Position numbers and translations under genes: made by a program
In this document: positions 469 through 43,576 of the stretch, in pieces
Layout of the letters: each line of letters starts with the position of its first letter
How positions within the stretch are numbered: the stretch's first letter is position 1
Notes under the pieces: model-generated
The model's input: only the letters and a program-made list of their open reading frames with translations
Databases searched by the model: none
What the model was told of the DNA's origin: nothing
Source of the DNA: an uncultured Candidatus Saccharibacteria bacterium
GTDB lineage: Bacteria > Patescibacteriota > Doudnabacteria > UBA920 > O2-02-FULL-48-8
NCBI GenBank assembly: GCA_964405805.1
Contig: CAYOPE010000004.1
Coordinates: 1-43,576, forward strand
Direction: 5' to 3'
DNA: 43,576 nt

Positions 469-824
469 GTAAGCGAGGAACCTTACCAGGGTTTGACATG
501 TACCTTCAAGCGCACGGAAACGTGTGATCTTCGAGAGTGGTACACAGGTACTGCACGGTTGTCGTCAGCTCGTGTCGTGTTCACTGAAAACCCCTTTTCA
601 AAAAAGTGGTTTTCAGTACTTTCCGCAAAAAGGATGGCGAAGTAAATTCGCCAGCTCAAGGACGGAAAGCTAATTTCGCGACCTCATGGAGTAATCTGTG
701 AGAAAAATCCAACTATATCGGGGAAACCCTATACTTAGGGCAATCCCGAGGGAAGTCCACTGCTTAATTTGATTAAAAAAGGCCGCACCCGCAGGGGCAC
801 GGCCACAGACGTTCGACTCGATCG

Positions 825-956
825 CTACTCGGCGATGAGACGAGGCACTGGCAGCAGACGCAGCCAGAATCCACGTCTCCAGTCGAAGAAGATTCCGATT
901 TTGAACGGACGTTTGGTCGCGTACAGGTGTACGCCATCGAACATGTGTCTCACCAT
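825..956 (-). CDS. Antisense 43-aa basic/hydrophobic mini-ORF inside the 16S intron (MVRHMFDGVHLYATKRPFKIGIFFDWRRGFWLRLLPVPRLIAE)
   Basis: On the minus strand there is a -35 TTGATT (1010-1005), a 17-nt spacer and an extended -10 TGTTATCAT (-10 at 987-982). SD GAAGGAGGG lies 4 nt before the ATG (956). After the stop there is a GC hairpin (804-781) plus a T6 run (780-775). The segment looks GC-rich, like the other cassettes. Confidence 0.35.
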   Translation of the reverse strand: MVRHMFDGVHLYATKRPFKIGIFFDWRRGFWLRLLPVPRLIAE

Positions 957-1120
957 GATGCCCTCCTTCAATGAGCTCATCATGATAACACAAGCAATTA
1001 GAATAATCAAGATTAAGCATGACCCCCTAGAGACTACACGTTGGCTCCCGAGAAATCGGGATGAAGATATAGTCCGACCTGCTAGGTAACTAGCAGAGCA
1101 TAAAAGAAATTTTATGCCAC

Positions 1121-1225
1121 GTAACAATTTTGAATTCTGAATTTAGAATTTTGAATCAAATTCGAATATTAGAATATTTAATATTCAATCGAAATTCAAA
1201 ATTAAAAATTCGAAATTATTGTTAC
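1121..1225. repeat. AT-rich long imperfect hairpin built of GAATT/AATTC units, near the intron 3' end (peripheral extension)
   Basis: GTAACAAT...ATTGTTAC closes a ~105-nt stretch of reiterated TTTGAATT/AATTCAAA motifs. Confidence 0.6.
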
Positions 1226-1539
1226 GAAGTAACAAATTGGAGATGTTCCCTTAAGTGGGAGAACGAGCGCAACCCCCGTAGTATGTTGATTTTCATACTA
1301 GACTGCCGGCGTTTAAGCTGGAGGAAGGTGGGGATGACGTCAAATCAGCGTGGTCTTTACGCCCTGGGCGACACACGTGCTACAATGCATAGGAACAATG
1401 GGACGCAACATCGCAAGATCGAGCAAATCCTCTCAAAAACTATGCTCAGTTCGGATTGGGGGCTGCAACTCGCCCCCATGAAGCTGGAATCGCTAGTAAC
1501 CGTGAATCAGCCTCGTCACGGTGAATACGTTCTCGGGTT

Positions 1540-1570
<31 letters not shown>

Positions 1571-1758
1571 GGTTAATACCCAAAACTTTCGCAAGAGAGC
1601 TAAGGTAAGAATCATGACTGGGGTGAAGTCGTAACAAGGCATCGGTAGCGGAAGCTGTCGATGGATCACCTCCTTTCTAAGGAGAAAATCTCTAAGGTTT
1701 AACTTAGAGACAATTGTCGATACGTGAAATTTATTCCCAATAAATTGTTTGCAAACTA

Positions 1759-9827: not shown

Positions 9828-9899
9828 CTATTGAAAAATTTCTGAAAATTTGCTATAATATATATAGTTAATTTTTTGGAGGGGGAAACAAATATAAAT

Positions 9900-10016
9900 A
9901 TGGCAGATCAAATGCCAGGTTCAATGCCGATGCCTGAAGGTAAGATGTGTGCCGCATGTGGACACATGCATGGTAAGCCAGATGGTACGTGCGATTGTGG
10001 TTGCACTGTAAAATAG
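9900..10016 (+). CDS. 38-aa Met/Cys/His-rich mini-protein (MADQMPGSMPMPEGKMCAACGHMHGKPDGTCDCGCTVK)
   Basis: Absent from the ORF track because it is shorter than 60 aa. Promoter TGCTATAAT (9850), SD GGAGGGGG, and a strong terminator directly after the stop. Confidence 0.6.
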   Translation: MADQMPGSMPMPEGKMCAACGHMHGKPDGTCDCGCTVK

Positions 10017-10096: not shown

Positions 10097-10402
10097 ATGG
10101 CAACAAACAACAAAGAACAAAATGGGCATATGCACGATGGATGCGATTGTGACTACCATCACGACTATCATCGGCACTTTGCGATGCGCTGGGTGCTAGG
10201 GATTGTGATTCTCCTTTTAGTTTTCTGGTTGGGCATGAAGATCGGGGAACTGAAGGAAGTGGTGGAGAGCGGGTTTGGTTACGGGGGATTTCATAATATG
10301 ATGTACAAAGGCTATCCGGGGGCGGGCATGATGGAGTATTGGCAAACCGCAGTGCCTGGGTCTACAGGTTCGACAACCCCGAAAACCTCGACTAAAAAGT
10401 AA
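10097..10402 (+). CDS. His/Cys-rich N-terminus plus single TM plus Met-rich exported tail protein
   Basis: Promoter TGGTATAAT (10065). The N-terminal NGHMHDGCDCDYHHDYHRH shares GHMH...CDC with the upstream mini-protein. TM segment WVLGIVILLLVFWLGM. Confidence 0.65.
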   Translation: MATNNKEQNGHMHDGCDCDYHHDYHRHFAMRWVLGIVILLLVFWLGMKIGELKEVVESGFGYGGFHNMMYKGYPGAGMMEYWQTAVPGSTGSTTPKTSTKK

Positions 10403-11022: not shown

Positions 11023-11466
11023 ATGAAAAAACTAATCAAAAATAAGGGTTTTACCTTGATTGAATTACTGGTGGTCATCTCGATTATCGGTATTTTGGCT
11101 TCCACTGTGTTGGTATCTCTAAACGGCGCGCGCCAAAAAGCCAGAGATGCTCGCAGAATTGCAGACATTAGACAAATTCAGACAGCTCTTGAGCTTTTTT
11201 ATAACGATAATAATAAGTACCCACTGCCGACCTCTGCGTCTACAGGCGGGCCTACCTCCACTGATGGCAATCCTAACTGGTCAACTTATGTGGCTATTTG
11301 GCCAGCTGCCCCTCTTCCGCCAGATGGCACTTGTGGCAGTTCGAACACATATACTTACAACCAAGAACTCAATGGCAACAGCTATACTTTATCCTTCTGT
11401 TTAGGTGCAGTTACAGGGGGGTATGCTGCGGGTTTCCACGTTGCCAGCCCCAGCGGTATCCAATAA
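11023..11466 (+). CDS. Type IV pilin paralog
   Basis: MKKLIKNKG|[18 protein letters not shown]. Shares [21 protein letters not shown] and the C-terminal ASPSGIQ with the other pilins. Confidence 0.9.
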
Positions 11467-11546
11467 TAGACCCTTAGTTAAATAGCCTGTTGGTTTACAA
11501 ATTTACCAAAATTTGATAAATTAAGTAGGCTATTTTTTATTGTTTA

Positions 11547-11624
11547 AGGGCGACTAGCTCAGGTGGTTAGAGCGCGTCACTGATAATGACGAGGTCGATG
11601 GTTCGAGTCCATCGTCGCCCACCA
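11547..11624 (+). tRNA. tRNA-Ile (anticodon GAU), CCA encoded
   Basis: The cloverleaf folds by hand: GGGCGAC/GTCGCCC acceptor stem, anticodon loop CTGATAA, T-loop TTCGAGT. Confidence 0.95.
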
Positions 11625-11630
11625 GAAATT

Positions 11631-11882
11631 ATGCATATTTTTAGCGGGCTAATTGGCGTAGCCGTAGGCTTCGTCTTAATTAAATACTCAGTGCCCTTGA
11701 CTGACATGTTTGGAAAAGTAGAATGGGCTGAAAGAAACTTGCGTGGGGGATTAGCCGGCACTTATTCACTATACAAAATAGTGGGAGTGATATTTATCAT
11801 CTTGTCGCTGCTCTATATGTTTGGCTTGATTGGCATAGTACTAGGACCTCTCAGTAACGTATTTGGCGGCGTTAAGCAATAA
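11631..11882 (+). CDS. 83-aa two-TM membrane protein that exactly fills the tRNA-Ile/tRNA-Ala spacer
   Basis: ATG 11631 lies 6 nt after the CCA of tRNA-Ile. The stop TAA (11880-11882) abuts G1 of tRNA-Ala (11883). Two clear hydrophobic helices. Confidence 0.6.
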   Translation: MHIFSGLIGVAVGFVLIKYSVPLTDMFGKVEWAERNLRGGLAGTYSLYKIVGVIFIILSLLYMFGLIGIVLGPLSNVFGGVKQ

Positions 11883-11956
11883 GGGCCTTTAGCATAATGG
11901 TAGTGCGCTCGGTTTGCATCCGAGATGTGGGAGTTCGATTCTCCCAAGGTCCACCA
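11883..11956 (+). tRNA. tRNA-Ala (anticodon UGC), CCA encoded
   Basis: GGGCCTT/AAGGTCC acceptor stem with the G3:U70 alanine identity pair. Anticodon loop TTTGCAT, T-loop TTCGATT. Confidence 0.95.
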
Positions 11957-12069
11957 AAAAGACTTTTTAAGATTGAAAGTTCTTTTTTGTTTGGATTTGA
12001 CGATAAAGTTAATTTTCATTATAATTTAGGAGCAATTGAGGATATCCTCAGTCCAAATCGCGAAACAAA

Positions 12070-13101
12070 ATGCTATTTTCTAAACCAAAAAGTCACCTTG
12101 GCGTGGATATCGGGTCTTCCAATATAAAAATTGTTCAATTGCGGGCAGAAGACAACAAATTTGTCCTCGAAACTTACGGTCTTGTGAATGTTTCTTACCA
12201 AATTAATAAGGACAATACAGCTTCAATCGCCCAGACAGCAGGACTTTTAAAAGAATTGATGGCTCGTGCGAAAACCACGACCAATAAAGTCGCAGCGTCT
12301 TTGCCCAACAGTTCGGTTTTTACTTCAGTCATCGAGATGCCGAAAATTCCAGAGAACGAACTGAAGTCAGCCGTCGAGTTTGAAGCCAAAAAATACATTC
12401 CATTACCGCTTGATGAGGTCGCTTTATCCTGGAGTGTGATTGAAGACAAGCGCAAACCCAGTACCACAGAAACGAAGATTAAAGTTTTACTCACAGCAGT
12501 CCCGACCGGCGTTATTGATAATTATGTGAAGGTATTTCAGATGGCAGAGCTTGAGCCGGAAGCTTTGGAAATAGAGTCTTTATCATTGATTCGCTCTTTA
12601 GTCGGGGAGGATCTAAATTCAATCCTCCTCATCGATATAGGTGCTAAAAATACTACAGTTAATCTGGTCGCCGCCGGGTACTTAAGAGTTACGAAAAATT
12701 TAAATGTTGGTGGTGATACGATCACTGCCAGTATCGCACAGAGTTTGTCCGTAAATTTTGCCCGAGCGGAGCAGTTTAAGAAAGATTTTGGTCTAAATAA
12801 TTCTAGTCAACAAATTCCTCAAGTTATGCGACCGATCCTAGATATCATAAAAAACGAGGCTCAACAGCTAATGAATTTGTTTGAGAGTCGAGGAGAAAAA
12901 ATCGACAAAGTATTGCTTTCAGGAGGCGGCTCGAAGCTCCCGTATCTAAAAGAATACTTTTCAGTCTTAGGAAAACCTGTACAGTTGGCCAATCCTTGGG
13001 GCCAGGTTATCTATGCTCAGAACCTCAAGCCAATTGTAGAGCCTTTGGGTCTAAATTTAGCAGTCGCTACGGGACTTGCCATGCGGCACTTCTCTCATTA
13101 A
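12070..13101 (+). CDS. pilM: Type IV pilus assembly ATPase-like protein PilM
   Basis: The actin-like N-terminus LGVDIGSSNIKIVQL, the length and its position before pilN/pilO. Confidence 0.9.
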   Translation: MLFSKPKSHLGVDIGSSNIKIVQLRAEDNKFVLETYGLVNVSYQINKDNTASIAQTAGLLKELMARAKTTTNKVAASLPNSSVFTSVIEMPKIPENELKSAVEFEAKKYIPLPLDEVALSWSVIEDKRKPSTTETKIKVLLTAVPTGVIDNYVKVFQMAELEPEALEIESLSLIRSLVGEDLNSILLIDIGAKNTTVNLVAAGYLRVTKNLNVGGDTITASIAQSLSVNFARAEQFKKDFGLNNSSQQIPQVMRPILDIIKNEAQQLMNLFESRGEKIDKVLLSGGGSKLPYLKEYFSVLGKPVQLANPWGQVIYAQNLKPIVEPLGLNLAVATGLAMRHFSH

Positions 13102-30758: not shown

Positions 30759-31478
30759 ATGAAGTACATCGCGACGATCGCAGTTGCGTTGTTTCTGGCT
30801 ACCTCCGCGGTGGCCAAAGACAAAGCGCCGACGTATAGTGAAGACGAAATCGCCAAGTACGAAGCAGCGGTTGATGTTGCGGCGATTCGGATTTCACAGG
30901 GAACGGATACTCTGGCAGCGGCGAAGCGAGCCGACGTAGAGGCTGTTGCCGAGAAGTATCGACGCGGTTTCCACCTCGTCGAAGAGACCAACCCGCTTTA
31001 CCGACTGGTCTCAGAGCAGTATGGAAAGCTCGCCGGTTCTCGTCGAGTGCGACTGCATTTGTTTCGCGGTCCGAGCTTGCCTGGAGTCGCGATCGGGGAT
31101 GACGTCTATCTCCACTACGACTCCATACACAAGCTGGCGACCTTCGCTGGCGGTCCGAACCTGATTTTGGCAACTCTGGCTCATGAACTGGGCCATGGGT
31201 CTGCTGACTTTACGCGACTGCTCGTCATTGACGGGCTTGCTCTACCAGCGGACCTGAAAGAAAGTCTGCGGCTGCGACTCGAGATGCGAGCTGACGAGGA
31301 AGCAGCGCGGCTGATGCAGGTATCGAACTTGTCGACTGACGGACTGACACAGAACCTTCGGGCTCTGGACTCAGGCACTGACAACGACGAGGACGGCCGG
31401 CTCAAGCAGCGCATTGCAAACCTCGAGATGTTTGCCAAGATGCCGCGCGTCGCTTCTGGCACACAATACCAACGCTAG
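30759..31478 (+). CDS. GC-rich cassette G: secreted HExxH zinc metalloprotease (M48-like)
   Basis: SD AAGGAGG. Signal peptide MKYIATIAVALFLATSAVA. Zinc site LAHELGHG with downstream EMRADEEA. Confidence 0.75.
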   Translation: MKYIATIAVALFLATSAVAKDKAPTYSEDEIAKYEAAVDVAAIRISQGTDTLAAAKRADVEAVAEKYRRGFHLVEETNPLYRLVSEQYGKLAGSRRVRLHLFRGPSLPGVAIGDDVYLHYDSIHKLATFAGGPNLILATLAHELGHGSADFTRLLVIDGLALPADLKESLRLRLEMRADEEAARLMQVSNLSTDGLTQNLRALDSGTDNDEDGRLKQRIANLEMFAKMPRVASGTQYQR

Positions 31479-31498
31479 CGCACTGGCGTTGGTTCCGA

Positions 31499-31557
31499 GA
31501 CCCGAGAGACTGACAGCTCATTACTGTCTTCACTCGGGTCTTCGCTTTGTCTTTTTT
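31499..31557 (+). terminator. Long hairpin plus T-run
   Basis: GACCCGAG..GACAG-loop-CTGTC..CTCGGGTC followed by TTCGCTTTGTCTTTTTT. Confidence 0.7.
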
Positions 31558-31599
31558 ATAAAATATGGCATAATACAGATAGAATCTTACTTATTTTTC

Positions 31600-32151
31600 A
31601 TGGGAAATCAAAACAAATTTTACTATTTAACTGTGAGTTTAGTAGCTTTGGTTACTTTGCTGGTCATAGGCTTAGTGAGCTACTTTATGGTTTTTAGGAC
31701 TGACTCAAATTCAAAGATTCAGACAAAGCCTAGTGAAAAAACCAACCAAGCTTCAGTGCCTGCTGATTTCGAGAATTTGCTAAATAATTCTAAAATTTAT
31801 GTGCCAGAAGTTAAGCAGAGTCAGGACATAAAAATTTCAGACCTGCCTACTAATTTATCAACCTTGCTTTTAAAGGACGCTCAAACAAGTGTCATAAAAA
31901 AAGTGACATATAATGATTTGAGTCAAGGTTTTCTTATCATTTACACAGTTGGATCTACTGTTGCAAATAGTTTTCAAAGCTTATCTTATCTCGTAGAAAA
32001 ATTACCGTTTAATCCTTATAACGGAGCGGGCACCACGGACAAAGGTATTATCGAAGCCGGAGACAATGCGTATCATTATCAAATTTTACTAAAAGCCATG
32101 GCTGATAAGAGCGAAATTAAGATAACAGCCATCAAATACTTAAGTGACTAG
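31600..32151 (+). CDS. TM-anchored accessory protein, family P, paralog 3
   Basis: ATG 31600 follows promoter TGGCATAAT (31565). SDLPTNLSTLLL...VTYNDLSQGFLIIY. Confidence 0.7.
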   Translation: MGNQNKFYYLTVSLVALVTLLVIGLVSYFMVFRTDSNSKIQTKPSEKTNQASVPADFENLLNNSKIYVPEVKQSQDIKISDLPTNLSTLLLKDAQTSVIKKVTYNDLSQGFLIIYTVGSTVANSFQSLSYLVEKLPFNPYNGAGTTDKGIIEAGDNAYHYQILLKAMADKSEIKITAIKYLSD

Positions 32152-33385
32152 ACAAAAGATAAAAATAATTATATTTTTTCTGCTTACCTTAAGCCTCGGT
32201 TTGATTTTAGGTTTAGCCCAAAATAGCAATGCCCAGAGTTGTGCCGGCGGCACTGGTGGTGGCTGTGGTGGCTCTGATGCAGGCTCTTGTATCGGTTCAC
32301 CGCTGTCATGCATTGGCGCTGCTTGCCATGTGGAGTCCCAGCCTGTTAGTTGTTCTGGTAATGGTGATACTTGGCAGTGCCCAAACGATGTCTGCGTGTT
32401 TGATTATGAATATCCTTACCCATACCAGTATCCGTATCCTTATCAGTACGAGTATGAGTATCAATATCCTTATCCCTATCAATACGAGTACCAATACCAA
32501 TACCAGTATCAGTACCAATATCCGTACCAATACGAATACCAATATCAAACCCCGTACTCTTATCAGTATCAGTACCAATACCAATACCAGTATCAGTACG
32601 AGTATGAAACGCCACCTCCACCGCCGCCAAATGCTCCAACGCTGAATAGTGTCGGAAACGCTACTTGTGCCCAGCTGAACCTGAGTTGGACTGACAATTC
32701 GTCAGATGAAAAAGGTTTTACTGTTTGGCGCTCCACTACTTCTGGTTCTGGTTTTAGCCAGATTAATTCAGTCGGTCCAAACATCACAACTTTCGTGGAC
32801 ACGCCTCCGAGTGTGGACACGTCGTATTTCTATGTGGTCAAAGCGTTTAATGATTTTGGTGAAAGCGCTTCAAACGAACAAAGTGCACTTAATCGGAAGT
32901 GTGAAGCCTCCATGGCCAACACCAGAGTTAGATTGATTAAAGTTAATGGTGTGAATTTCTCATCAGTGGATACTATTAAAAATTCCGACACCGTCACCTA
33001 CCAAATCACCCTAGTCAACTCAGGTCCTTCCAATGCTACCATCAACTACATCTGTGACTTCCCATCATCAAACCTGACAAACTTAAGAAACCTCACTGTC
33101 TCAGGCCCTGGTTCTAGCAATGGGGGAATCACAGCTAACTCACCAACCTGTAACAATTCCTACAAATTCAATGTCTCCGGCAACAAGAATCTAGCCAACA
33201 ACTGGGTTATTACCTTTGATGGTACTGTCTCAACTGCTATCACAGACATCCAGGAAGTCATGAAAGACAGCATCAGAATCAACTTCTCTGATCCTACCAA
33301 CAAAGACTGGTCTGGCTCTGCCCCGAACATCCTTATTAACTCTACCAAAGGCAAGACCCCCAACTTCAGAGAGGTCAGTCCATGA
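32144..33385 (+). CDS. Exported adhesin-like protein 2 (GTG start), same architecture as 29383-30672
   Basis: Signal peptide, 10 Cys, a (Y-x)n tract of about 65 residues, poly-Pro, FN3, and a C-terminal domain that is nucleotide-identical to paralog 1. Confidence 0.85.
   Translation: MTRQKIKIIIFFLLTLSLGLILGLAQNSNAQSCAGGTGGGCGGSDAGSCIGSPLSCIGAACHVESQPVSCSGNGDTWQCPNDVCVFDYEYPYPYQYPYPYQYEYEYQYPYPYQYEYQYQYQYQYQYPYQYEYQYQTPYSYQYQYQYQYQYQYEYETPPPPPPNAPTLNSVGNATCAQLNLSWTDNSSDEKGFTVWRSTTSGSGFSQINSVGPNITTFVDTPPSVDTSYFYVVKAFNDFGESASNEQSALNRKCEASMANTRVRLIKVNGVNFSSVDTIKNSDTVTYQITLVNSGPSNATINYICDFPSSNLTNLRNLTVSGPGSSNGGITANSPTCNNSYKFNVSGNKNLANNWVITFDGTVSTAITDIQEVMKDSIRINFSDPTNKDWSGSAPNILINSTKGKTPNFREVSP
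32405..32599 (+). repeat. Hexanucleotide array encoding (YP/YQ/YE)n
   Basis: Same type of array as 29623-29874. Confidence 0.9.
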
Positions 33386-33386
33386 A
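32987..33386 (+). repeat. 400-bp perfect direct repeat, copy 2
   Basis: Identical to 30274-30673. Confidence 0.9.
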
Positions 33387-34008
33387 ACAGCAGAGAGGAC
33401 AAAGCTTAATCGAGACCATTGTCGCAATCTTTATCCTAACCTCATCTTTAATCGGAGGTTTGGGTTTAACTATCTACGCTTTTTCTGGTTCGACCAATTC
33501 ACAAAACGAGTTCCTAGCATCTAACCTGGCTCGCGAAGGGGTAGAAGTCATCCGGACGATCCGCGATTCGAGCTGGCTTTCAGGTGATAAGCAGGGAGGC
33601 GCTGCTGATTTACAAACTTGTGCTGATATTGGTAGTAAGCTCTGTTATCCACAAGCCTACAGTGGCATTAATGCTGGAAATCAGAGAATCGTGTTTGATA
33701 CACTGACCAGTTCTTGGGCGTTAGTCAGTAATCCAGTAAATTATAATTTGTATTTGCAAGCAGATGGTACGTATTCTAGTGTCACGAATGGTGCTTCTGT
33801 CTTTGGGCGCATGATTAACATCAGTTTTAACTCCAACGCTCCGTATACGAATCAAAACTCTAATCAAGAAATGATTGTTAAGTCAGTAGTTGCTTGGCGA
33901 GGGAAAGGATGTACTAGTTTTACTTCTACAGACAATCTGTTAACTCTTTCCACGCCCTGCAAGACAGTGGTCGAAGAGCACATGACTAACTGGAAGGATT
34001 ATAAATGA
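33382..34008 (+). CDS. Minor pilin / pseudopilin
   Basis: MKQQRG|QSLIETIVAIFILTSSL (Glu at +5). ATGA overlaps the adhesin 2 stop. Confidence 0.8.
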   Translation: MKQQRGQSLIETIVAIFILTSSLIGGLGLTIYAFSGSTNSQNEFLASNLAREGVEVIRTIRDSSWLSGDKQGGAADLQTCADIGSKLCYPQAYSGINAGNQRIVFDTLTSSWALVSNPVNYNLYLQADGTYSSVTNGASVFGRMINISFNSNAPYTNQNSNQEMIVKSVVAWRGKGCTSFTSTDNLLTLSTPCKTVVEEHMTNWKDYK

Positions 34009-34565
34009 CACGTATCACGTATCGCGGGTCACGTCTCAAGGGGTTTACCCTGATTGAAGCAGTGGTGGCTACTGCAGTATTTGCTTTTACTATTGTTTCG
34101 ATTTTAGGAGTTTACGTAGCTACTACCAAACTTGATCGGAAAAGCAGAGCGGAAAGAGCAGTTTCCCAAAACGGCCGTTTCATCATGGAGTTTCTAGCCA
34201 AAGAAATCCGCAATGGGACGATAGATTACTCTAGCTACCCGGGCGGTACGGTTTCCACCACTACAGATTTGTTTTTAGAAAATCAAGCCAATGAACTTGA
34301 GCATCTTTTTAAAAGTGGCAATGATATGATTTTAAACAAAGGTTCAAATGTCAACATGAATTCGGCTTCTGTAAAAGTGACGAAGTTGGATTTTTATATC
34401 AAACCAGTGGGAAATCCTTTCACTGTCGCGAAAACTTTTAACGAACAGCCGCACGTCACTGTGATTTTACAGCTGCAATCAAACTATGGAACTCGGACGA
34501 ATGATATAGCTACTCTTAATTTAGAAGATACTTTTGCCGTTCGAATTTATCCAAGTCGAGAATAA
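34005..34565 (+). CDS. Minor pilin / pseudopilin
   Basis: RLKG|FTLIEAVVATAVFAF. Confidence 0.8.
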   Translation: MTRITYRGSRLKGFTLIEAVVATAVFAFTIVSILGVYVATTKLDRKSRAERAVSQNGRFIMEFLAKEIRNGTIDYSSYPGGTVSTTTDLFLENQANELEHLFKSGNDMILNKGSNVNMNSASVKVTKLDFYIKPVGNPFTVAKTFNEQPHVTVILQLQSNYGTRTNDIATLNLEDTFAVRIYPSRE

Positions 34566-34566
34566 C

Positions 34567-35331
34567 ATGAAAAAACAAGCAGGTGTTACGTTGATAATAT
34601 CAATTCTAATAATGTCAGCTGTGGCTCTGGCTAGTGTCGCTGTGGCCGCGTTTGCTCTTTCAGAAATTCGTTCATCCAGAGCAGTCGCGTTAACTGAACC
34701 TGCGATTTCTGCTTCAGAAACAGCCGGGGAGCAAGGATTGTGGGCGATTAAACGCGACGTCTCGCTTACCAATTGTAATTCTGGTCAGACCACAGTTAGC
34801 TTAAGCAATGGGGCAATAGTTAATTCCTGTAAAACTTATTCTAAAGCCACGATTAACCTTAAAGGTGGCGTGCCTTTTGTCTTTTTCTTATACGACCCAA
34901 ATGACCCCAATGGCAATCTCTGCATGAATCAGACTTATGATTCAGGACAGCATAGCGGGTGTGCAGGAGCAGCTATCTATACCAGCATTACGATTGTCCA
35001 CAAGGCTGGAACTTCTGATGTTTCTGTAACCACTCGTGATTTAAATGGTAATGCCTTTGCAGGCTCTGATATTACTGTAACTAGAAATTCTACAGGGACT
35101 GTAACGATTCCAGATCCGATACCGGCCACTCCGCCGACTAATGACGAACGATTAAAAGTAACTCTGTCTTCAAATACTGATACAACTATAGAGTTAAATG
35201 CTTTGCCTTTGGGACTACCAAACTATCCGACTGTGAGCGCAGGTGGCTGTGCAGCAAAAACCGCTCTTTCAGATTGTACTTCAGGAGCGGAGATATTCAA
35301 CCGTAGATTAAATATTACAGTGCCTCAGTAG
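34567..35331 (+). CDS. PilX-like minor pilin / pilus-associated protein
   Basis: MKKQAGVTLIISILIMSAVALASVAV resembles the PilX N-terminal domain (no Glu at +5). Confidence 0.65.
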   Translation: MKKQAGVTLIISILIMSAVALASVAVAAFALSEIRSSRAVALTEPAISASETAGEQGLWAIKRDVSLTNCNSGQTTVSLSNGAIVNSCKTYSKATINLKGGVPFVFFLYDPNDPNGNLCMNQTYDSGQHSGCAGAAIYTSITIVHKAGTSDVSVTTRDLNGNAFAGSDITVTRNSTGTVTIPDPIPATPPTNDERLKVTLSSNTDTTIELNALPLGLPNYPTVSAGGCAAKTALSDCTSGAEIFNRRLNITVPQ

Positions 35332-35333
35332 AC

Positions 35334-35888
35334 CTAAGGCAATTTAATGACTTGACCCGGTGTGATCAAATCAGATTTTTGAAGATTGGGATTAACCGCA
35401 ATTATATCAGCAACCGTGATATTAAATTGCTTGGCGATACTTGAAAGAGTATCGTTTGATTTGATGGTATAAATTTTTCCATCGACTTTACTAGTAGTAG
35501 CTTGAGGAATTTTTAGGATTTGACCAGCATGCACGACAAAAGGTTCTGAAAGATCATTAATCTGCGCAATCGAATCCCACCGGACATTGTATTGTTGGCT
35601 GATATTAAAGAGAGTGTCACCATTCTTAACAGTATACTGGGTAAATTGAGAGTCAGGAGCAGGAGTGGTCTCGGTTGTGGACTCGCCGAGGACTTGTTGT
35701 GTTACGGCTTCAGTTGTTTTATTATTATTTGAGGAAGAGGATGAGTGTGAGGGCCATAAATTGATAGTCAGAAGCACACTTCCAATCAAAAAAAGTACCC
35801 CAGCAGTAGTCAACTTCACGTCCCGTCTAGAAGAGGGAGTGATTTGAGCACGTAACTCGGGTGATAAGTGGGGTTTGATATATTTCAT
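35334..35888 (-). CDS. TM-anchored protein with two LysM peptidoglycan-binding domains
   Basis: YTVKNGDTLFNISQQYNV...GQILKIP and YTIKSNDTLSSIAKQFNI...GQVIKLP. Confidence 0.88.
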   Translation of the reverse strand: MKYIKPHLSPELRAQITPSSRRDVKLTTAGVLFLIGSVLLTINLWPSHSSSSSNNNKTTEAVTQQVLGESTTETTPAPDSQFTQYTVKNGDTLFNISQQYNVRWDSIAQINDLSEPFVVHAGQILKIPQATTSKVDGKIYTIKSNDTLSSIAKQFNITVADIIAVNPNLQKSDLITPGQVIKLP

Positions 35889-35906
35889 CTCTCGATTTTG
35901 GTTTTT

Positions 35907-35934
35907 CCGCCAGAGGCGGATCCGCCTCTGGCGG
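35907..35934. repeat. Perfect 28-bp nested palindrome in the divergent lysM/ligA intergenic region
   Basis: CCGCCAGAGGCGGA|TCCGCCTCTGGCGG. Each half is itself a CCGCC-N3-GGCGG hairpin. Confidence 0.9.
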
Positions 35935-35957
35935 ACTTACTCTCTTATTTGCTTTGA

Positions 35958-37957
<2,000 letters not shown>

Positions 37958-37958
<1 letters not shown>

Positions 37959-39181
37959 TGGAATTTTTGCGAATAAAAAATAGAAGAATCGCTTGGGCTT
38001 TTTTGATTATCGTAATAGTTTTTATTGTTCTCAGTATTCCTTTTAAGGACGGTCGTTCTACATATGCTTACTGGGAACTGATTCGTGACCTGGGTCAGAT
38101 TAGACAAATCGATCAAGGGCGACTAGTCGAGCTGGGTCCTATTTCAAGCTTGGGAGATTTTCATTTCGGACCCATTTATTATTATCTGGCTTTTCCTTTC
38201 GTAAAGATTTTAGATTTTAAACTTTATTCGCTAGCTTTGACTAGCGCTTTTTTTATGCTGCTGTGTGTGATCGGCAGTTTCGTGCTGATTAAAGACTGGT
38301 TTAAAAATGAAATACTAGCGTTCTTAACTTTTGCTAGTATGGCCATCTCCATCATGACTTTTCAGCTGACCAAATACGGTTCTAACCCGAACTTCATCCC
38401 GTTTTTTATTGTTTTATTTTTTTATTCGTTGAGGAAACTCATAGACGAACCGAAAAATTTAATGCAAACGATAATTCTTGCTGTTAGTTTTGCTGTCTTA
38501 ACCCAGCTTCACGCCGTAACCCTTCTTGCTATTCCCATAATTTTAGTTTTGACGTATATTACTACGAATTTGAAAAGAGTACCGATTCGGAGCATCATAG
38601 TTTTTCTCTTCGTCAATTTGGTTTTGTATTATCCATACTTGCACTACGAATTCACTCACCACTTTAGTAATACTCAGGCTCTGATGCATTTATCAAATGG
38701 AGCCAACGGCTCCTGGGAAATGTACTATTCGCATCTGATTCAATTTGTTTCTTTTTTTATTAACCCGATTTTGTCTACACATAGTTTTTTTGATGCTTTA
38801 GATATTGGCGGAACTTGGTTTACTATTTTGGTGGCTGTTGTGTTTGGTCTAGCTCCTATCGTTTGGATTGTAAATAAGCGTCACAGAAAATATTTATTTT
38901 CAGAAATTATTCATGCCGATGCTATAACCAAAAAACTTTTGTGGTTTTGGTTTCTGGTGCCTGCCATAATTTTTATTTTACCCCTGGGTCGCACGTCGAA
39001 TTTTCAGTATTATTATTTTTTTATTCTTTATCCGATAGTTTTTGGACCATTTGCATATGGTCTGATCTGGCTTTTTCGCCAAGGTTTGAACTACACAGTG
39101 ATTTATTGTATTTTAGCCTTTTTGTTACTGCAAGCTTTACAAATATATTTGTATATAAATTTCGTTAGGGGTTTGGTCTGA
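37958..39181 (+). CDS. Polytopic membrane protein, GT-C (ArnT/PMT-like) glycosyltransferase-like
   Basis: About 11 hydrophobic segments, Phe/Tyr-rich, with the typical size. No catalytic motif was verified. Confidence 0.6.
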
Positions 39182-39264
39182 TTTGTAATTTAGAATCTTT
39201 CGTGTTACCATGCCTATAATTTGAGCGAATTAATCGCTCACTTGAGTCTCCGAAGGAGGAACTC

Positions 39265-40002
39265 ATGAAGGTTCAGGCAGTTGGCAGTTTCGCAGATCCA
39301 ATCGACCTGATTCGATCGCAGGACCAGAAATGGCAGCGTATGCGTGAAGCCATGGATTGGCTAACGAAGAGCCGATCGGTCCTCGAAGGTGGTCACTTCA
39401 GGTTTGGCACAGACGAGAAAGAACAACACGGACGTATCTACGTAAACGCCCGTCGGTTGTTCAACATGGCATTCGCGAGCAAGTGGTTGATTACGGCGTT
39501 GGCGGATGTCCTACCCACGGAGGTCCGTGAGCAAACGGAGATCGTAGCCGGTCCGACCACATGCGGCATCATCATCGCGCGTGATCTGGCGGATCACCTG
39601 TCGTCGAAACTCAAAGAAGGCCAACCGGATGTCGAAGCCATCTTTTTCGGTCGCGATTGGAACGACATCTATACAATTCACGAGTCCGATGCCGACCGAT
39701 TGCTTGTGTGGGAACCTGTTGATCCAAACAAGCCTGATGGAGAGCAGAAAGTCGTGCGTGGTCGCCGCGTTCTTTTAGTCGATGACGTTCGACACCGTGG
39801 GGTGACGTTTGAAGCTTGCTTCCAGCTGATCAAACGGGCTGGAGGCGAAGTCATCGCCACCGCTCAGCTCATCGATCGCGGCATGGCTACACTGCCGATT
39901 CCAGTCCCGAACTACTTCGTCGGCCAGGTCGATCGTGATCGGTTGTACAAACCGAAGGACTGCCCGATGTGTCGAGTCGGTGAGCCCATCACGAAGTTCT
40001 GA
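39265..40002 (+). CDS. GC-rich island: type I phosphoribosyltransferase (OPRT-like)
   Basis: SD GAAGGAGG. PRPP loop RVLLVDDVRHRGVTF. EGGHFRFG near the N-terminus. C-terminal CPMCRVGEP. Confidence 0.75.
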   Translation: MKVQAVGSFADPIDLIRSQDQKWQRMREAMDWLTKSRSVLEGGHFRFGTDEKEQHGRIYVNARRLFNMAFASKWLITALADVLPTEVREQTEIVAGPTTCGIIIARDLADHLSSKLKEGQPDVEAIFFGRDWNDIYTIHESDADRLLVWEPVDPNKPDGEQKVVRGRRVLLVDDVRHRGVTFEACFQLIKRAGGEVIATAQLIDRGMATLPIPVPNYFVGQVDRDRLYKPKDCPMCRVGEPITKF

Positions 40003-40012
40003 AGGAGGGCGT

Positions 40013-40237
40013 ATGAGTCTGCTGTTGCTTTTCGTCTTCCTCGTGGTGCTTGGCGTGATCTTTGTGTGCAGCGTGTTCTTTCCGATCCGTCTACTGCTTC
40101 TGCTATGTGCAATCTGGACGATCGTGCTTCTGATCATGGCCACCACCTTTACCACCGTCATCATCGGAGTCGCGCCTCTGATCGCTGTTCTGGTGGGTCA
40201 CGCGGTCGGTCAGATCCGGGTTAACACGAGCTTCTGA
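40013..40237 (+). CDS. GC-rich island: 74-aa two/three-TM membrane protein
   Basis: SD GAAGGAGGG 4 nt (CGT A) before ATG 40013. Almost entirely hydrophobic. Confidence 0.55.
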   Translation: MSLLLLFVFLVVLGVIFVCSVFFPIRLLLLLCAIWTIVLLIMATTFTTVIIGVAPLIAVLVGHAVGQIRVNTSF

Positions 40238-40247
40238 GGAGAGCGTC

Positions 40248-40433
40248 ATGGACATTAAACTTCATTGGTGCAACTTCGCACTCGCGCTCTGGGCGTGCAC
40301 GCCGAGAGGTGGCGAGTGGCTCCGGAAAAGATTCGGAACCACGAACGTCACGGTCCACTGCTCGTATGAGCCGATCATGCGAGAGCTGGCTCAGACTGGT
40401 CTGGCCATCGGCGGCGACGTCCCTGTGGTGTAG
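40248..40433 (+). CDS. GC-rich island: 61-aa hypothetical protein
   Basis: SD GAGGAGAG. A terminator follows the stop. Confidence 0.5.
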   Translation: MDIKLHWCNFALALWACTPRGGEWLRKRFGTTNVTVHCSYEPIMRELAQTGLAIGGDVPVV

Positions 40434-40443
40434 TTCTCAGCCC

Positions 40444-40493
40444 GCCTGCCTCGAACTTCGCTTTACTGCGGATCGAGGCGGGCGTGTTTTTTT
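40444..40493 (+). terminator. Long hairpin terminator, sibling of 41658-41708
   Basis: GCCTGCCTCGA...TCGAGGCGGGC plus GTGTTTTTTT. Confidence 0.75.
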
Positions 40494-40553
40494 AACCCAA
40501 GCTCTTCTTCGGCTTGTATTTGACTTTAAGCGAAACTATTCATTAAACTAATA

Positions 40554-40570
40554 TGTTGGTTCAACCAACA
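40554..40570. promoter_or_regulatory. Perfect 8-1-8 palindrome TGTTGGTT-C-AACCAACA abutting the SD of the triple-HTH gene (candidate operator)
   Basis: Read directly. It ends 1 nt before GGAGGA. Confidence 0.45.
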
Positions 40571-40581
40571 GGAGGATCGAG

Positions 40582-41169
40582 ATGGGCACACACCCCGCTC
40601 ATTATCTGTTCAGCTTGCTGGCTAAAAGAATGAGACTGAGCTTGGCGCCTTTCTATTTGTGGGAGAAAAAAGGCCTTCTTCCTGTCCACGTCGTGAACGG
40701 AGATAAGGTCGTGAAGGCCTCGATTGCGCGGCCGCTTATCCAGGTATGGCGCACGACATGTACTCGAGCAGAGTTTGCGAGACTGACAGGCTGGAACAAA
40801 AATTCGATCGGTTATCTCATAAATCGCAGATTGATCCACGCAAGAAAGGTTCACGGTCGTTGGCGTCCTTGTCGCAGCTCTATACCTGTCGCACGCCGCC
40901 TGGCTAGTCAGCACATGCGACAAGTCAAACGGATGAGTCAAGGAAACTTCTTCGTTCAGTTGGCGGGTAGACCGCAGGAGCTCCAAGGCCAGACGCAGAA
41001 TTTGTCAGTGACGGCTCAGTACCTCGGAGTAGGCACTAGCATGGTTCATGTCTGGATTTCTGAAGGAAAGCTTAAAGTGACTTACTACAGAGGGCGTCTC
41101 GTGGTGTTTACAAGTTCGATCAAAAGTCTTCGTAAGAGATTTTTGGTTGAATTTAAGAACGACTACTAA
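40582..41169 (+). CDS. GC-rich island: protein with three excisionase/MerR-type (HTH_17-like) units
   Basis: Unit 3, LSVTAQYLGVGTSMVHVWISEGKLKVTYYRGRLVVF, is a textbook Xis/AlpA-type HTH. Two weaker units lie upstream. Confidence 0.65.
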   Translation: MGTHPAHYLFSLLAKRMRLSLAPFYLWEKKGLLPVHVVNGDKVVKASIARPLIQVWRTTCTRAEFARLTGWNKNSIGYLINRRLIHARKVHGRWRPCRSSIPVARRLASQHMRQVKRMSQGNFFVQLAGRPQELQGQTQNLSVTAQYLGVGTSMVHVWISEGKLKVTYYRGRLVVFTSSIKSLRKRFLVEFKNDY

Positions 41170-41178
41170 GGGGGCGTT

Positions 41179-41649
41179 GTGGCAAATACCAAGCCGGGCG
41201 GCACGCTCGGCAAAATGTCCGCCAAGAAGAGGCGACAGGTTCAGTCCAAAGGTGGGCAGGCGTCGCATGAAAAAGGAGTGGCTCCCGAATTCAGCGCGGG
41301 TCGTCAAGGCTCTGGCCGCAAGGCAGCACTCAGGAGCTGGGAGCTGTGCCCGAAGCGTGATCTACCACCACTATCAAGCGACCGGGCGCGCGAGCTTGCT
41401 TTCAGTCGCTGGAAGGAAGCGTATCAGCACCTGCTTTTGCCCGTGACGACACCTCAGCTACTCATACCAATCGCCGAGTGCGCGCAGTTGCTGCGGGTGA
41501 ACAAGATTACTTTCAGGCGATGGCGGAGGCTCGGACTGTTTCGCGGGGAAGTGACCAAGGGGCAAAAGAAATACTTGCCCTACGAACGACTGGAGATGGG
41601 GCGAAGAGCCGTGGTCCGTTTTTACAAGATCAAACCGGCTTCGGTCTAG
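41179..41649 (+). CDS. GC-rich island: KGG-motif N-terminus plus HTH_17-like C-terminus (GTG start)
   Basis: SD AAGGGGG. SKGGQASHEKG resembles the stress-protein KGG repeat. IPIAECAQLLRVNKITFRRWRRLGLF is HTH-like. Confidence 0.55.
   Translation: MANTKPGGTLGKMSAKKRRQVQSKGGQASHEKGVAPEFSAGRQGSGRKAALRSWELCPKRDLPPLSSDRARELAFSRWKEAYQHLLLPVTTPQLLIPIAECAQLLRVNKITFRRWRRLGLFRGEVTKGQKKYLPYERLEMGRRAVVRFYKIKPASV

Positions 41650-42285: not shown

Positions 42286-43576
<1,291 letters not shown>

Follow-up and report, generated by a model that had tools for sequence, protein, structure and literature searches.

A small membrane-protein gene set between tRNA-Ile and tRNA-Ala genes in Patescibacteria, and its possible release by tRNA maturation

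Contig CAYOPE010000004.1 of assembly GCA_964405805.1, from an uncultured Candidatus Saccharibacteria bacterium that GTDB places in Doudnabacteria, was analysed over its 43,576 nt (the whole of this stretch is called the window here). ARAGORN finds exactly two transfer RNA (tRNA) genes in the window, both on the + strand, and Rfam agrees. The interval between them is taken up by an open reading frame (ORF) of 83 codons, and it is this ORF, its junctions with the two tRNA genes and the way in which it may be expressed that are described here. The features of the cassette, with the promoter-like sites on either side of it, are as follows:

11494-11522, + strand: promoter-like site from a consensus scan (-35 TTTACA, 17-nt spacer, -10 TAAATT with TG before it)
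11548-11624, + strand: tRNA-Ile(GAT), 77 nt, CCA encoded in the gene (ARAGORN; Rfam RF00005, 69 bits)
11625-11630, + strand: spacer GAAATT, 6 nt from CCA to ATG, of A-then-T character
11631-11882, + strand: ORF of 83 codons, ATG to TAA, gene for a membrane protein with two transmembrane (TM) segments
11883-11956, + strand: tRNA-Ala(TGC), 74 nt, with G3:U70 and CCA encoded in the gene (ARAGORN; Rfam, 68.3 bits)
11997-12025, + strand: promoter-like site (TTGACG, 17-nt spacer, TATAAT) preceding pilM-pilN-pilO-pilB, the 3' limit of the unit

At the junctions the letters are ...GTCGCCCACCA/GAAATT/ATG CAT ... AAG CAA TAA/GGGCCTTTAGC. The ATG at 11631 stands 6 nt past the gene-encoded CCA of tRNA-Ile, and the TAA at 11880-11882 is immediately 5' of G1 of tRNA-Ala at 11883, a gap of 0 nt, with the 3' end of the ORF, AAGCAATAA, running straight into GGGCCTTTAGC. 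A preliminary description of this DNA had put the start codon, the 6-nt gap and the abutment of stop codon and tRNA at these very positions, which the sequence, ARAGORN and Rfam all show to be exact. It had also held that a separate promoter finds no room here and that no terminator parts the genes. Both points stand: the gaps measure 6 and 0 nt, the spacer at 11625-11630 has no Shine-Dalgarno (SD) sequence and is too short to hold a promoter, and no terminator-like site occurs in 11548-11956. The tRNA-Ile of the window is 100% identical to that of nine other distinct loci among the relatives introduced below.

The ORF is a genuine conserved gene for a small two-helix membrane protein. In the ORF list it has a 98-aa form starting at an ATG within the tRNA-Ile anticodon loop, and the database gene call on the contig (P0001) has 94 aa; alignment of the homologues shows that ATG 11631 is the true start. 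Stop codons have a frequency of ~0.059 at this base composition, by which an 83-codon frame would stay open by chance at ~0.6% per frame, and a chance ORF is excluded because the frame is conserved across homologues. A search of 5.8 billion proteins gave 43 homologues of 43-76% identity, nearly all of 80-88 aa and sharing the first residue. We gathered 31 related loci from genomes, metagenomes and assemblies (L numbers below), of which 25 are distinct, or 26 with the window. Codon alignments of 22 distinct loci have a median proportion of nonsynonymous differences (pN) of 0.23 against a saturated synonymous proportion (pS) of 0.78, a median ratio of nonsynonymous to synonymous divergence (dN/dS) of 0.12 where dS is finite, and identities of 0.66, 0.85 and 0.39 at the three codon positions. 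Selection on the ORF is strongly purifying. The preliminary description had proposed a check of relatives bearing the same tRNA pair, and in these the ORF is intact in 22 further distinct loci, at 39-76% identity.

Hydrophobic segments of the protein cover residues 3-21 (Kyte-Doolittle 1.96) and 50-72 (up to 2.87). An AlphaFold2 model with a mean pLDDT (predicted local distance difference test) of 80.5 has helices at 3-27, 43-63 and 67-75, arranged as a helical hairpin plus a short helix in a strongly conserved loop, FG.V.WAE..L.GG..GTY. The earlier suggestion of a real gene with two TM helices, as opposed to a chance ORF, is thus borne out by homologues, purifying selection, hydropathy and AlphaFold2. 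To judge from its sequence, the product is probably a small integral membrane protein, an accessory subunit that is made constitutively.

The family, as defined here, comprises proteins of ~76-90 aa with a first TM segment, the loop FG.V.WAE..L.GG..GTY, a second TM segment containing ..LS.LYMFG, and an FGG end; the window protein holds all invariant and nearly invariant columns of the family alignment. At least 438 clusters at 50% identity match the family profile (E <= 0.001; 1.84 billion cluster representatives searched). By source name the members belong to Doudnabacteria, Veblenbacteria, Magasanikbacteria, Komeilibacteria, Uhrbacteria and Kerfeldbacteria, i.e. to Patescibacteria, also known as the candidate phyla radiation (CPR), and the nearest proteins and loci are those of Candidatus Doudnabacteria. 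Against Pfam the best matches of the window protein reach 12 bits, below cut-offs of 23-25, NCBIfam gives none, and across 86 family members no Pfam family is matched by more than two. SecG, DUF3784, DUF202 and DUF5362 are among the small membrane-protein families of Pfam that the protein thus fails to reach. A profile search of PDB sequences and a Foldseek search of PDB folds gave no significant match, and no description of this ~80-aa two-TM family turned up in literature searches. Two identities were considered and rejected: (i) SecG, suggested by the parallel with the Escherichia coli secG-leuU operon discussed below, finds no match with its hidden Markov model (HMM). (ii) A general link with type IV pili is contradicted by synteny with pilM/N/O/B that holds only within Doudnabacteria and is lost in Kerfeldbacteria, in the 1.18-Mb contig of L029 and in Magasanikbacteria.

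Gene callers run the ORF upstream into the tRNA (in the window as 11586-11882 and 11598-11882), an annotation error that recurs throughout the family; extended calls are P0001, P0013, P0031, P0069, P0079, P0100, P0102 and P0114. False N-termini such as MTRSMVRVHRRPPEI are translated T-arm plus CCA, and the 'VRV..RPP' type is common in the family. For annotation this means that a family widespread in the CPR is both without a name and represented by calls wrongly extended into a tRNA.

The tRNAs of the related loci were mapped with ARAGORN, Rfam and BLAST. The 5' end of a tRNA-Ala(TGC) lies at most 10 nt from the stop codon of the ORF in 15 of the 26 distinct loci, and at most 200 nt from it in 23. 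Gaps from stop codon to tRNA-Ala in the tight loci are:

0 nt: the window, L018, L020
3 nt: L001, L028
4 nt: L025
6 nt: L029
7 nt: L008, L019
8-10 nt: L004, L009, L017, L003, L013, L016

On the other side, 10 loci have a tRNA gene of the same strand (Ile, but Val in distant relatives) whose end is 6-19 nt upstream of the ATG. The gap from CCA to ATG is 6 nt in L019, 7 nt in L025 and 10 nt in L004 and L013, all of them independent assemblies, and the same-strand spacers keep an A-then-T character (GAAATT, AAAAAT, AAAATT, AAAAATT, GAAAAAAATT, GAAAATTTTT). Linkage persists in other candidate phyla at 35-45% protein identity: L028, from Kerfeldbacteria, has the order tRNA-Val, ORF, 3 nt, tRNA-Ala, and the 1.18-Mb contig of L029 has rplS, tRNA-Leu, tRNA-Val, 13 nt, ORF, 6 nt, tRNA-Ala. 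Among 17 N-terminally extended calls from distant family representatives, at least 8 read through the T-arm/CCA end of a tRNA (e.g. 'MTRPQVRVLDRPP', 'GSSPV'), and a tRNA therefore lies just upstream in those distant members too. When the proteins are arranged in a neighbour-joining tree, the outgroups show the tight state, which also recurs here and there within the family; the junction of ORF and tRNA-Ala is therefore an ancient feature. By this comparison of loci it is the ancient conserved part of the arrangement, while the identity and the orientation of the upstream tRNA vary.

Two distinct types of tRNA-Ala(TGC) stand after the ORF, distinguished by an unusual D-arm (GCATAATGGTAGTGC) and a canonical one (GCTCATTTGGTAGAGC). 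The window, L018, L008 and others are on one side of this division and L019, L020, L016, L005 and L004 on the other; in L004 a typical GGGGATATAGCTCAG tRNA-Ala comes after a degraded copy of one of the types. These sequences suggest repeated tRNA replacement at a fixed site after the ORF. Where the gap from ORF to tRNA-Ala is 138-168 nt, a conserved element of ~70 nt, GGAGCRGCRTG.AGACCGRAGC...CGGACGCGTAGWGTCT...GACG, lies directly upstream of the tRNA (L010 3320-3390, identical in L026; L023 3350-3420). It has no Rfam match at the gathering threshold.

The promoter-like site at 11494-11522 predicts a start near 11529, ~19 nt 5' of tRNA-Ile. Its presumed function agrees with the occurrence of a block GGTTTACAAA..N..AATTTGGTAGATTA that is kept 12-25 nt upstream of a + strand tRNA-Ile in L004, L013, L001 and L017, so that five loci, the window included, have it in common. 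No intrinsic terminator was found after tRNA-Ala. The consensus scan as a whole yields 5 sites, where 4.0 are expected by chance, and its only match within the window ORF is TTGACT-16-TAGAAT at 11697-11724 (ORF +66), with a score of 10/12. This match follows from conserved codons (L-T-D...V-E-W) and is absent from the other tight loci L018, L019, L020, L025, L013 and L003; we rejected it as an internal promoter for tRNA-Ala, its only recurrence being in L022, which has a tRNA-Ala promoter of its own. Third-codon-position identity at the 3' end of the ORF is 0.27-0.36, which is background level and the same in loose loci, implying that there is no extra synonymous constraint and no conserved promoter hidden in the ORF. 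Also rejected was the GATAAT of the tRNA-Ile anticodon loop as a promoter for the ORF, since it has no -35 element at the right spacing and is not called by the scan.

With no room between the genes and no conserved promoter inside the ORF, RNA polymerase must therefore cross the ORF to make tRNA-Ala, and the RNA of the ORF is therefore the 5' leader of pre-tRNA-Ala. Judged on these sequences, co-transcription of the ORF with tRNA-Ala in the tight loci is close to a logical necessity. The preliminary description had proposed a precursor of the form tRNA, messenger RNA (mRNA), tRNA; its co-transcription with tRNA-Ala is upheld by the lack of room and of a conserved promoter, although the arrangement turns out not to be obligatory among relatives. 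Folding of the whole precursor was uninformative (z = -0.88).

No SD-like motif is found in the 25 nt before the ORF, where the energy of the duplex with the anti-SD is +0.2 kcal/mol; the 3' end of 16S ribosomal RNA (rRNA) carries a normal anti-SD (CACCUCCUUU). The remark that an SD has no room here was right as far as the ORF goes, but the lack is nothing special, because some 31 of the 39 gene starts in the window have no SD-like motif and only about 8 have one. To judge from these starts, an SD-less start is the rule in this genome and not a peculiarity of the ORF. Most starts in the window are preceded by A/T-rich sequence, e.g. AAAT or AAAAT, and the SD-bearing genes cluster at 30759-41179. 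In L008, L009 and L020 a -10-like hexamer (of TTTACC-17-TAAACT) stops 6-8 nt short of the ATG, so that the mRNA of this gene should be leaderless in those loci. Leaderless-type translation fits the sequence around the window ORF as well.

From the real gene, its exact geometry and the conserved arrangement we infer a co-transcript, its cleavage sites and a mode of translation. The reading we prefer, with a rough probability of 0.55, is that tRNA-Ile, the mRNA and tRNA-Ala would make up one precursor, and that tRNA maturation would yield a near-leaderless mRNA with no 3' untranslated region (UTR), translated without an SD. Transcription would start from the conserved promoter-like site ~25 nt 5' of tRNA-Ile and proceed through tRNA-Ile, ORF and tRNA-Ala. 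A cut by RNase P at 11882/11883, as expected from tRNA biology, would leave an RNA ending in ...UAA-3'OH with no 3' UTR; RNase P must create an RNA 3' end at 11882 because a tRNA with a 5' leader universally requires 5' maturation. Once the 3' end of tRNA-Ile has matured, no more than 6 nt of leader would remain on the mRNA. Candidates for the 5' cut are RNase Z or, with exonucleolytic trimming afterwards, an RNase E/Y-type enzyme that attacks the A/U spacer. Translation would then be SD-independent, probably of the leaderless or short-leader type. A likely consequence is that the membrane protein would be made in step with a tRNA operon, whose transcription is strong and growth-linked. A ribosome terminating at the TAA would sit over the first 12-15 nt of tRNA-Ala; translation and RNase P would therefore compete on each molecule, and a kinetic race of ribosomes against tRNA processing would limit the output.

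A number of observations weigh against this reading. Among the relatives, tRNA-Ile is on the opposite strand in 12 distinct loci, and where it is inverted the ORF has its own conserved promoter, TTTACC-17-TAAACT; in L002 and L021-L024 a tRNA-Ala promoter, TTGACC-17-TAAACT, starts at the stop codon; and in L027, a single member from Magasanikbacteria, the ORF is without a neighbouring tRNA. The protein therefore does not need tRNA punctuation, and across the loci compared the tRNA linkage is ancient but not obligatory. Ribosome-rescue systems may partly accept an mRNA that ends with its stop codon as a substrate, in competition with release factors. The 43.6-kb window encodes no RNase. Public RNA runs included none that matched the locus beyond 2-3 tRNA words (share 0.04-0.07) and none with L013, and a search for the junctions was likewise empty. 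The assembly of the window leaves a doubt too: the sole public run found to hold the locus, with no other coming to light, is a rock metagenome (5-8x depth, contigs only), none of whose contigs covers 11626-11671, the tRNA-Ile/ORF junction, and a second of its contigs matches 11400-11610 with 3 T-stem mismatches and then continues with ~1.7 kb of unrelated sequence. Finally, the RNase P cut of E. coli secG-leuU is followed by decay in under 30 s, and the processed RNA may not be the translated species (PMC2241853).

That operon is also the closest precedent for the downstream junction. In E. coli, RNase P separates the secG mRNA from tRNA-Leu across a 14-nt spacer (Mohanty & Kushner 2008; PMC2241853), and the cut leads to rapid mRNA decay and not to a stable mature mRNA. 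As in the window, a gene for a small two-TM protein is followed by a same-strand tRNA with no promoter between them, on one transcript in which RNase P at the tRNA 5' end defines the 3' end of the mRNA, as demonstrated in E. coli and as would hold here. The differences are that the spacer is 0 nt here, so that the mRNA would end at its stop codon; that secG has no upstream tRNA, has a normal 5' UTR and its own promoter; and that the proteins are unrelated, the one studied here having no match to the SecG family of Pfam.

For the upstream junction, the E. coli operon thrU-tyrU-glyT-thrT-tufB offers a comparison, in which the tRNA genes upstream share the promoter of the protein gene and tRNA 3' processing frees the mRNA. 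A tRNA gene would likewise lie upstream of the protein gene on one transcription unit at our locus. The tufB spacer is about a hundred nt long with a normal ribosome-binding site, whereas here it has 6 nt and no SD, and no tRNA lies downstream of the protein gene in the E. coli operon. Like such mixed tRNA-mRNA operons, the cassette occupies one strand with no promoter or terminator between its genes.

The preliminary description had compared the cassette with the tRNA punctuation of mitochondria (reviewed in PMC3790967; for plant t-elements see PMC1920247). The tRNA-flanked geometry upholds the analogy: the mRNA is flanked on both sides by same-strand tRNAs, 6 nt away at one end and 0 nt at the other, RNase P and a tRNA 3' endonuclease would be expected to form its ends, and it would have essentially no UTRs and leaderless-type initiation. 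In other respects the analogy fails, and closer precedents exist in bacteria. There is a single cassette here, with two tRNAs in 43.6 kb and ordinary junctions at the other ~38 genes, and no sign of a genome-length precursor; the TAA is complete, as are the stops of all relatives, with no polyadenylation needed; and the cutting would fall to the RNase P and a 3' endonuclease of a bacterium. We do not class the cassette as mitochondrial punctuation because it is not genome-wide and because the stop codon is complete. With leaderless mRNAs it would share the absence of an SD and an AUG at or near the 5' end, as the -10 boxes of L008, L009 and L020 predict for those loci, but in the window the 5' end would come from processing (5'-monophosphate) and not from initiation (5'-triphosphate). 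By analogy, then, the arrangement resembles a bacterial mixed tRNA-mRNA operon compacted to a mitochondrial degree, an extreme form of a known kind. The literature searched held no account of a bacterial mRNA with a tRNA on either side at a distance of 0-6 nt.

The alternative that survives best keeps the co-transcript and changes the translated molecule: ribosomes would load at the A/U-rich start region of the nascent or unprocessed precursor, with one or both tRNAs not yet cut off, and tRNA processing, chiefly the RNase P cut at 11883, would end the life of the mRNA. Tight packing would then keep expression low or brief, or would simply be genome compaction. We consider this unlikely, though it deserves to be taken seriously. 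It gains from E. coli, where the half-life of secG mRNA is under 30 s after RNase P frees leuU and ~20% of 3' ends keep the spacer (PMC2241853), from the exposure of an RNA that ends in UAA-3'OH without a protective 3' structure, and from the many genes here that start internally without an SD, which make internal SD-less initiation available. Against it, the folded acceptor stem of tRNA-Ile would lie 6 nt from the AUG, inside the footprint of the 30S subunit, and should hinder initiation on unprocessed RNA. In relatives with their own promoter the gene is predicted to be leaderless, a hint that it works with a free 5' end close to the AUG, and the 0-10 nt spacing to tRNA-Ala, kept across phyla, is more than compaction alone predicts.

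Independent transcription of the three genes, from promoters hidden in their neighbours (the GATAAT of the anticodon loop and the site at 11697-11724), is improbable. Several relatives clearly do have separate promoters for the ORF and for tRNA-Ala, and the 10/12 match inside the window ORF looks the part; but the scan found hardly more sites than chance would supply, the ORF site is not conserved and no synonymous constraint attends it, and the anticodon-loop GATAAT lacks a properly spaced -35. Even a start at 11730 would leave the distal part of the ORF in the leader of pre-tRNA-Ala.

More improbable still is that the tight tRNA-Ile/ORF junction of the window is an artefact of assembly, produced by a join inside tRNA-Ile or by collapse of a nested duplicate. 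Identity of tRNA-Ile at 100% among many Doudnabacteria could favour such a join, as could the nested or duplicated tRNA-Ile copies of relatives (described below), which could mislead an assembler, and both the uncovered interval 11626-11671 and the similar-flank contig that diverges after tRNA-Ile would agree with it. That contig could represent a second strain, or the window contig could have been joined inside tRNA-Ile. However, the contig on the right-hand side, which matches 11672-12100 exactly and thereby covers the TAA/G1 junction, dead-ends at 11672 at 5-8x depth and not at the tRNA repeat. The order of promoter, tRNA-Ile, 6-10 nt, ORF, 0-10 nt and tRNA-Ala is found also in L004, L013, L019 and L025, and a chimera would change the upstream flank, not the CCA-6 nt-ATG or TAA/G1 junctions. 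The doubt about a join weakens the identity of the upstream promoter and the order 16S...Ile...Ala...23S for the window; the TAA/G1 junction is unaffected.

That the ORF is an untranslated relic, carried as the leader of pre-tRNA-Ala, is hardly credible: the geometry is indeed awkward for initiation and termination, but amino acids are 56-76% conserved against saturated synonymous sites, and none of the 25 other distinct loci departs in frame, length, start or stop, in a family of at least 438 clusters at 50% identity.

If the processing of the precursor proposed above is real, the cassette would be the most compact bacterial tRNA-mRNA-tRNA unit known to us, and its product a conserved natural mRNA with a stop codon for its 3' end and a 5' end made by the 3' maturation of a tRNA. 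This would be a moderate surprise, given that E. coli is known to have mixed tRNA-mRNA operons whose transcripts RNase P processes. The questions raised are whether bacterial ribosomes can initiate on processed, near-leaderless mRNAs with a 5'-monophosphate, how termination and ribosome rescue share an mRNA with nothing after its stop codon, and how translation and RNase P compete for one RNA. A broader proposal, which we put forward tentatively and consider doubtful as a whole, is that across much of Patescibacteria the mRNA of this ORF might exist only as the translated leader of pre-tRNA-Ala, in many cases with a further tRNA ahead of it, with RNase P as its dedicated 3'-end former (at most 10 nt from the stop), a tRNA 3' endonuclease making its leaderless 5' end, output set by the race between ribosomes and maturation, and perhaps cross-talk with the supply of tRNA-Ala. 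It would then be a deeply conserved bacterial counterpart of mitochondrial punctuation.

The window starts inside a 16S rRNA gene with a group I intron and ends inside a 23S gene 40 kb away, and nearly all genes between the two are on the + strand. Upstream of the cassette are genes for GNAT, UppP/BacA, PAP2 and CAAX protease proteins and two pilin-like genes; downstream are pilM, pilN, pilO, pilB, a pilT-like ATPase gene, pilC, a prepilin peptidase gene and, later, ligA. The 16S (1-1676) and 23S (42286-43576) genes share a strand, with tRNA-Ile and tRNA-Ala between them in the canonical spacer order. Some 10 kb of + strand protein genes on one side of the tRNA pair and 30 kb on the other separate it from the rRNA genes; they include cell-envelope genes, a complete type IV pilus cluster and ligA. 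The layout looks like a stretched-out rRNA operon. L003 has its 16S gene 5.4 kb downstream and on the other strand, and the rRNA order is thus not conserved.

The group I intron match inside 16S covers 665-1096 and scores 52.2 bits against a gathering score of 50. The 1676 nt of this 16S stretch span only 1039 model positions, by which a further insertion of ~200 nt must be present. ORFs at 670-1020 (- strand) and 1130-1576 (+ strand) lie inside the 16S gene, the first without a Pfam match. Upstream of the pilin genes, small ORFs at 9876-10016 and 10097-10402 are rich in Cys and His (..CAACGHMHGKPDGTCDCGC.. and ..HMHDGCDCDYHHDYHRH.., then a TM segment); the second, 10097-10402, has no Pfam match. 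By their sequence these Cys/His-rich peptides may bind metal.

Several relatives carry 'Russian doll' tRNAs next to the ORF, i.e. one tRNA gene nested within another, with the ORF adjoining the outer copies; the tRNAs of the window are clean and single. The loci concerned are:

L003, 5738-5991
L006, 784-1040, - strand
L001, 6253-6513
L002, 6298-6540
L009, 3262-3560
L018, 1-124

Partial nested copies occur in L008, L014, L021-L023 and L025. In L003 and L006 the outer tRNA-Ile is split inside the anticodon (35/36), as CACTGA/CCCGCCTGCC ... GGCGGGCAGG/TAATGACG, by an insert of ~145-180 nt that holds a complete second tRNA-Ile. In L001, L002 and L009 it is tRNA-Ala that is split, at 37/38, as TTTGCA/CCCCGCACTAA ... 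TTAGTGCGGGG CAGG/TCCGAC, and the insert contains a complete second tRNA-Ala. Overall the inserts measure ~110-230 nt and their ends pair (CCCGCCTGCC../..GGCGGGCAGG for Ile, CCCCGCACTAA../..TTAGTGCGGGG for Ala); the L003 unit is predicted to fold as one cloverleaf inside another (z = -6.4). At 100% identity the outer halves match functional tRNA-Ile found elsewhere, yet some outer copies have extra GC-rich palindromic hairpins in the D- or T-loop. A group I intron or another Rfam family was sought as the cause of the interruptions and none was found; no Rfam family and no paper in the literature searched accounts for the nested tRNAs. Possibly they are a miniature mobile element that carries a tRNA and targets anticodon loops, a tRNA intron of a new kind, or decaying duplicates.

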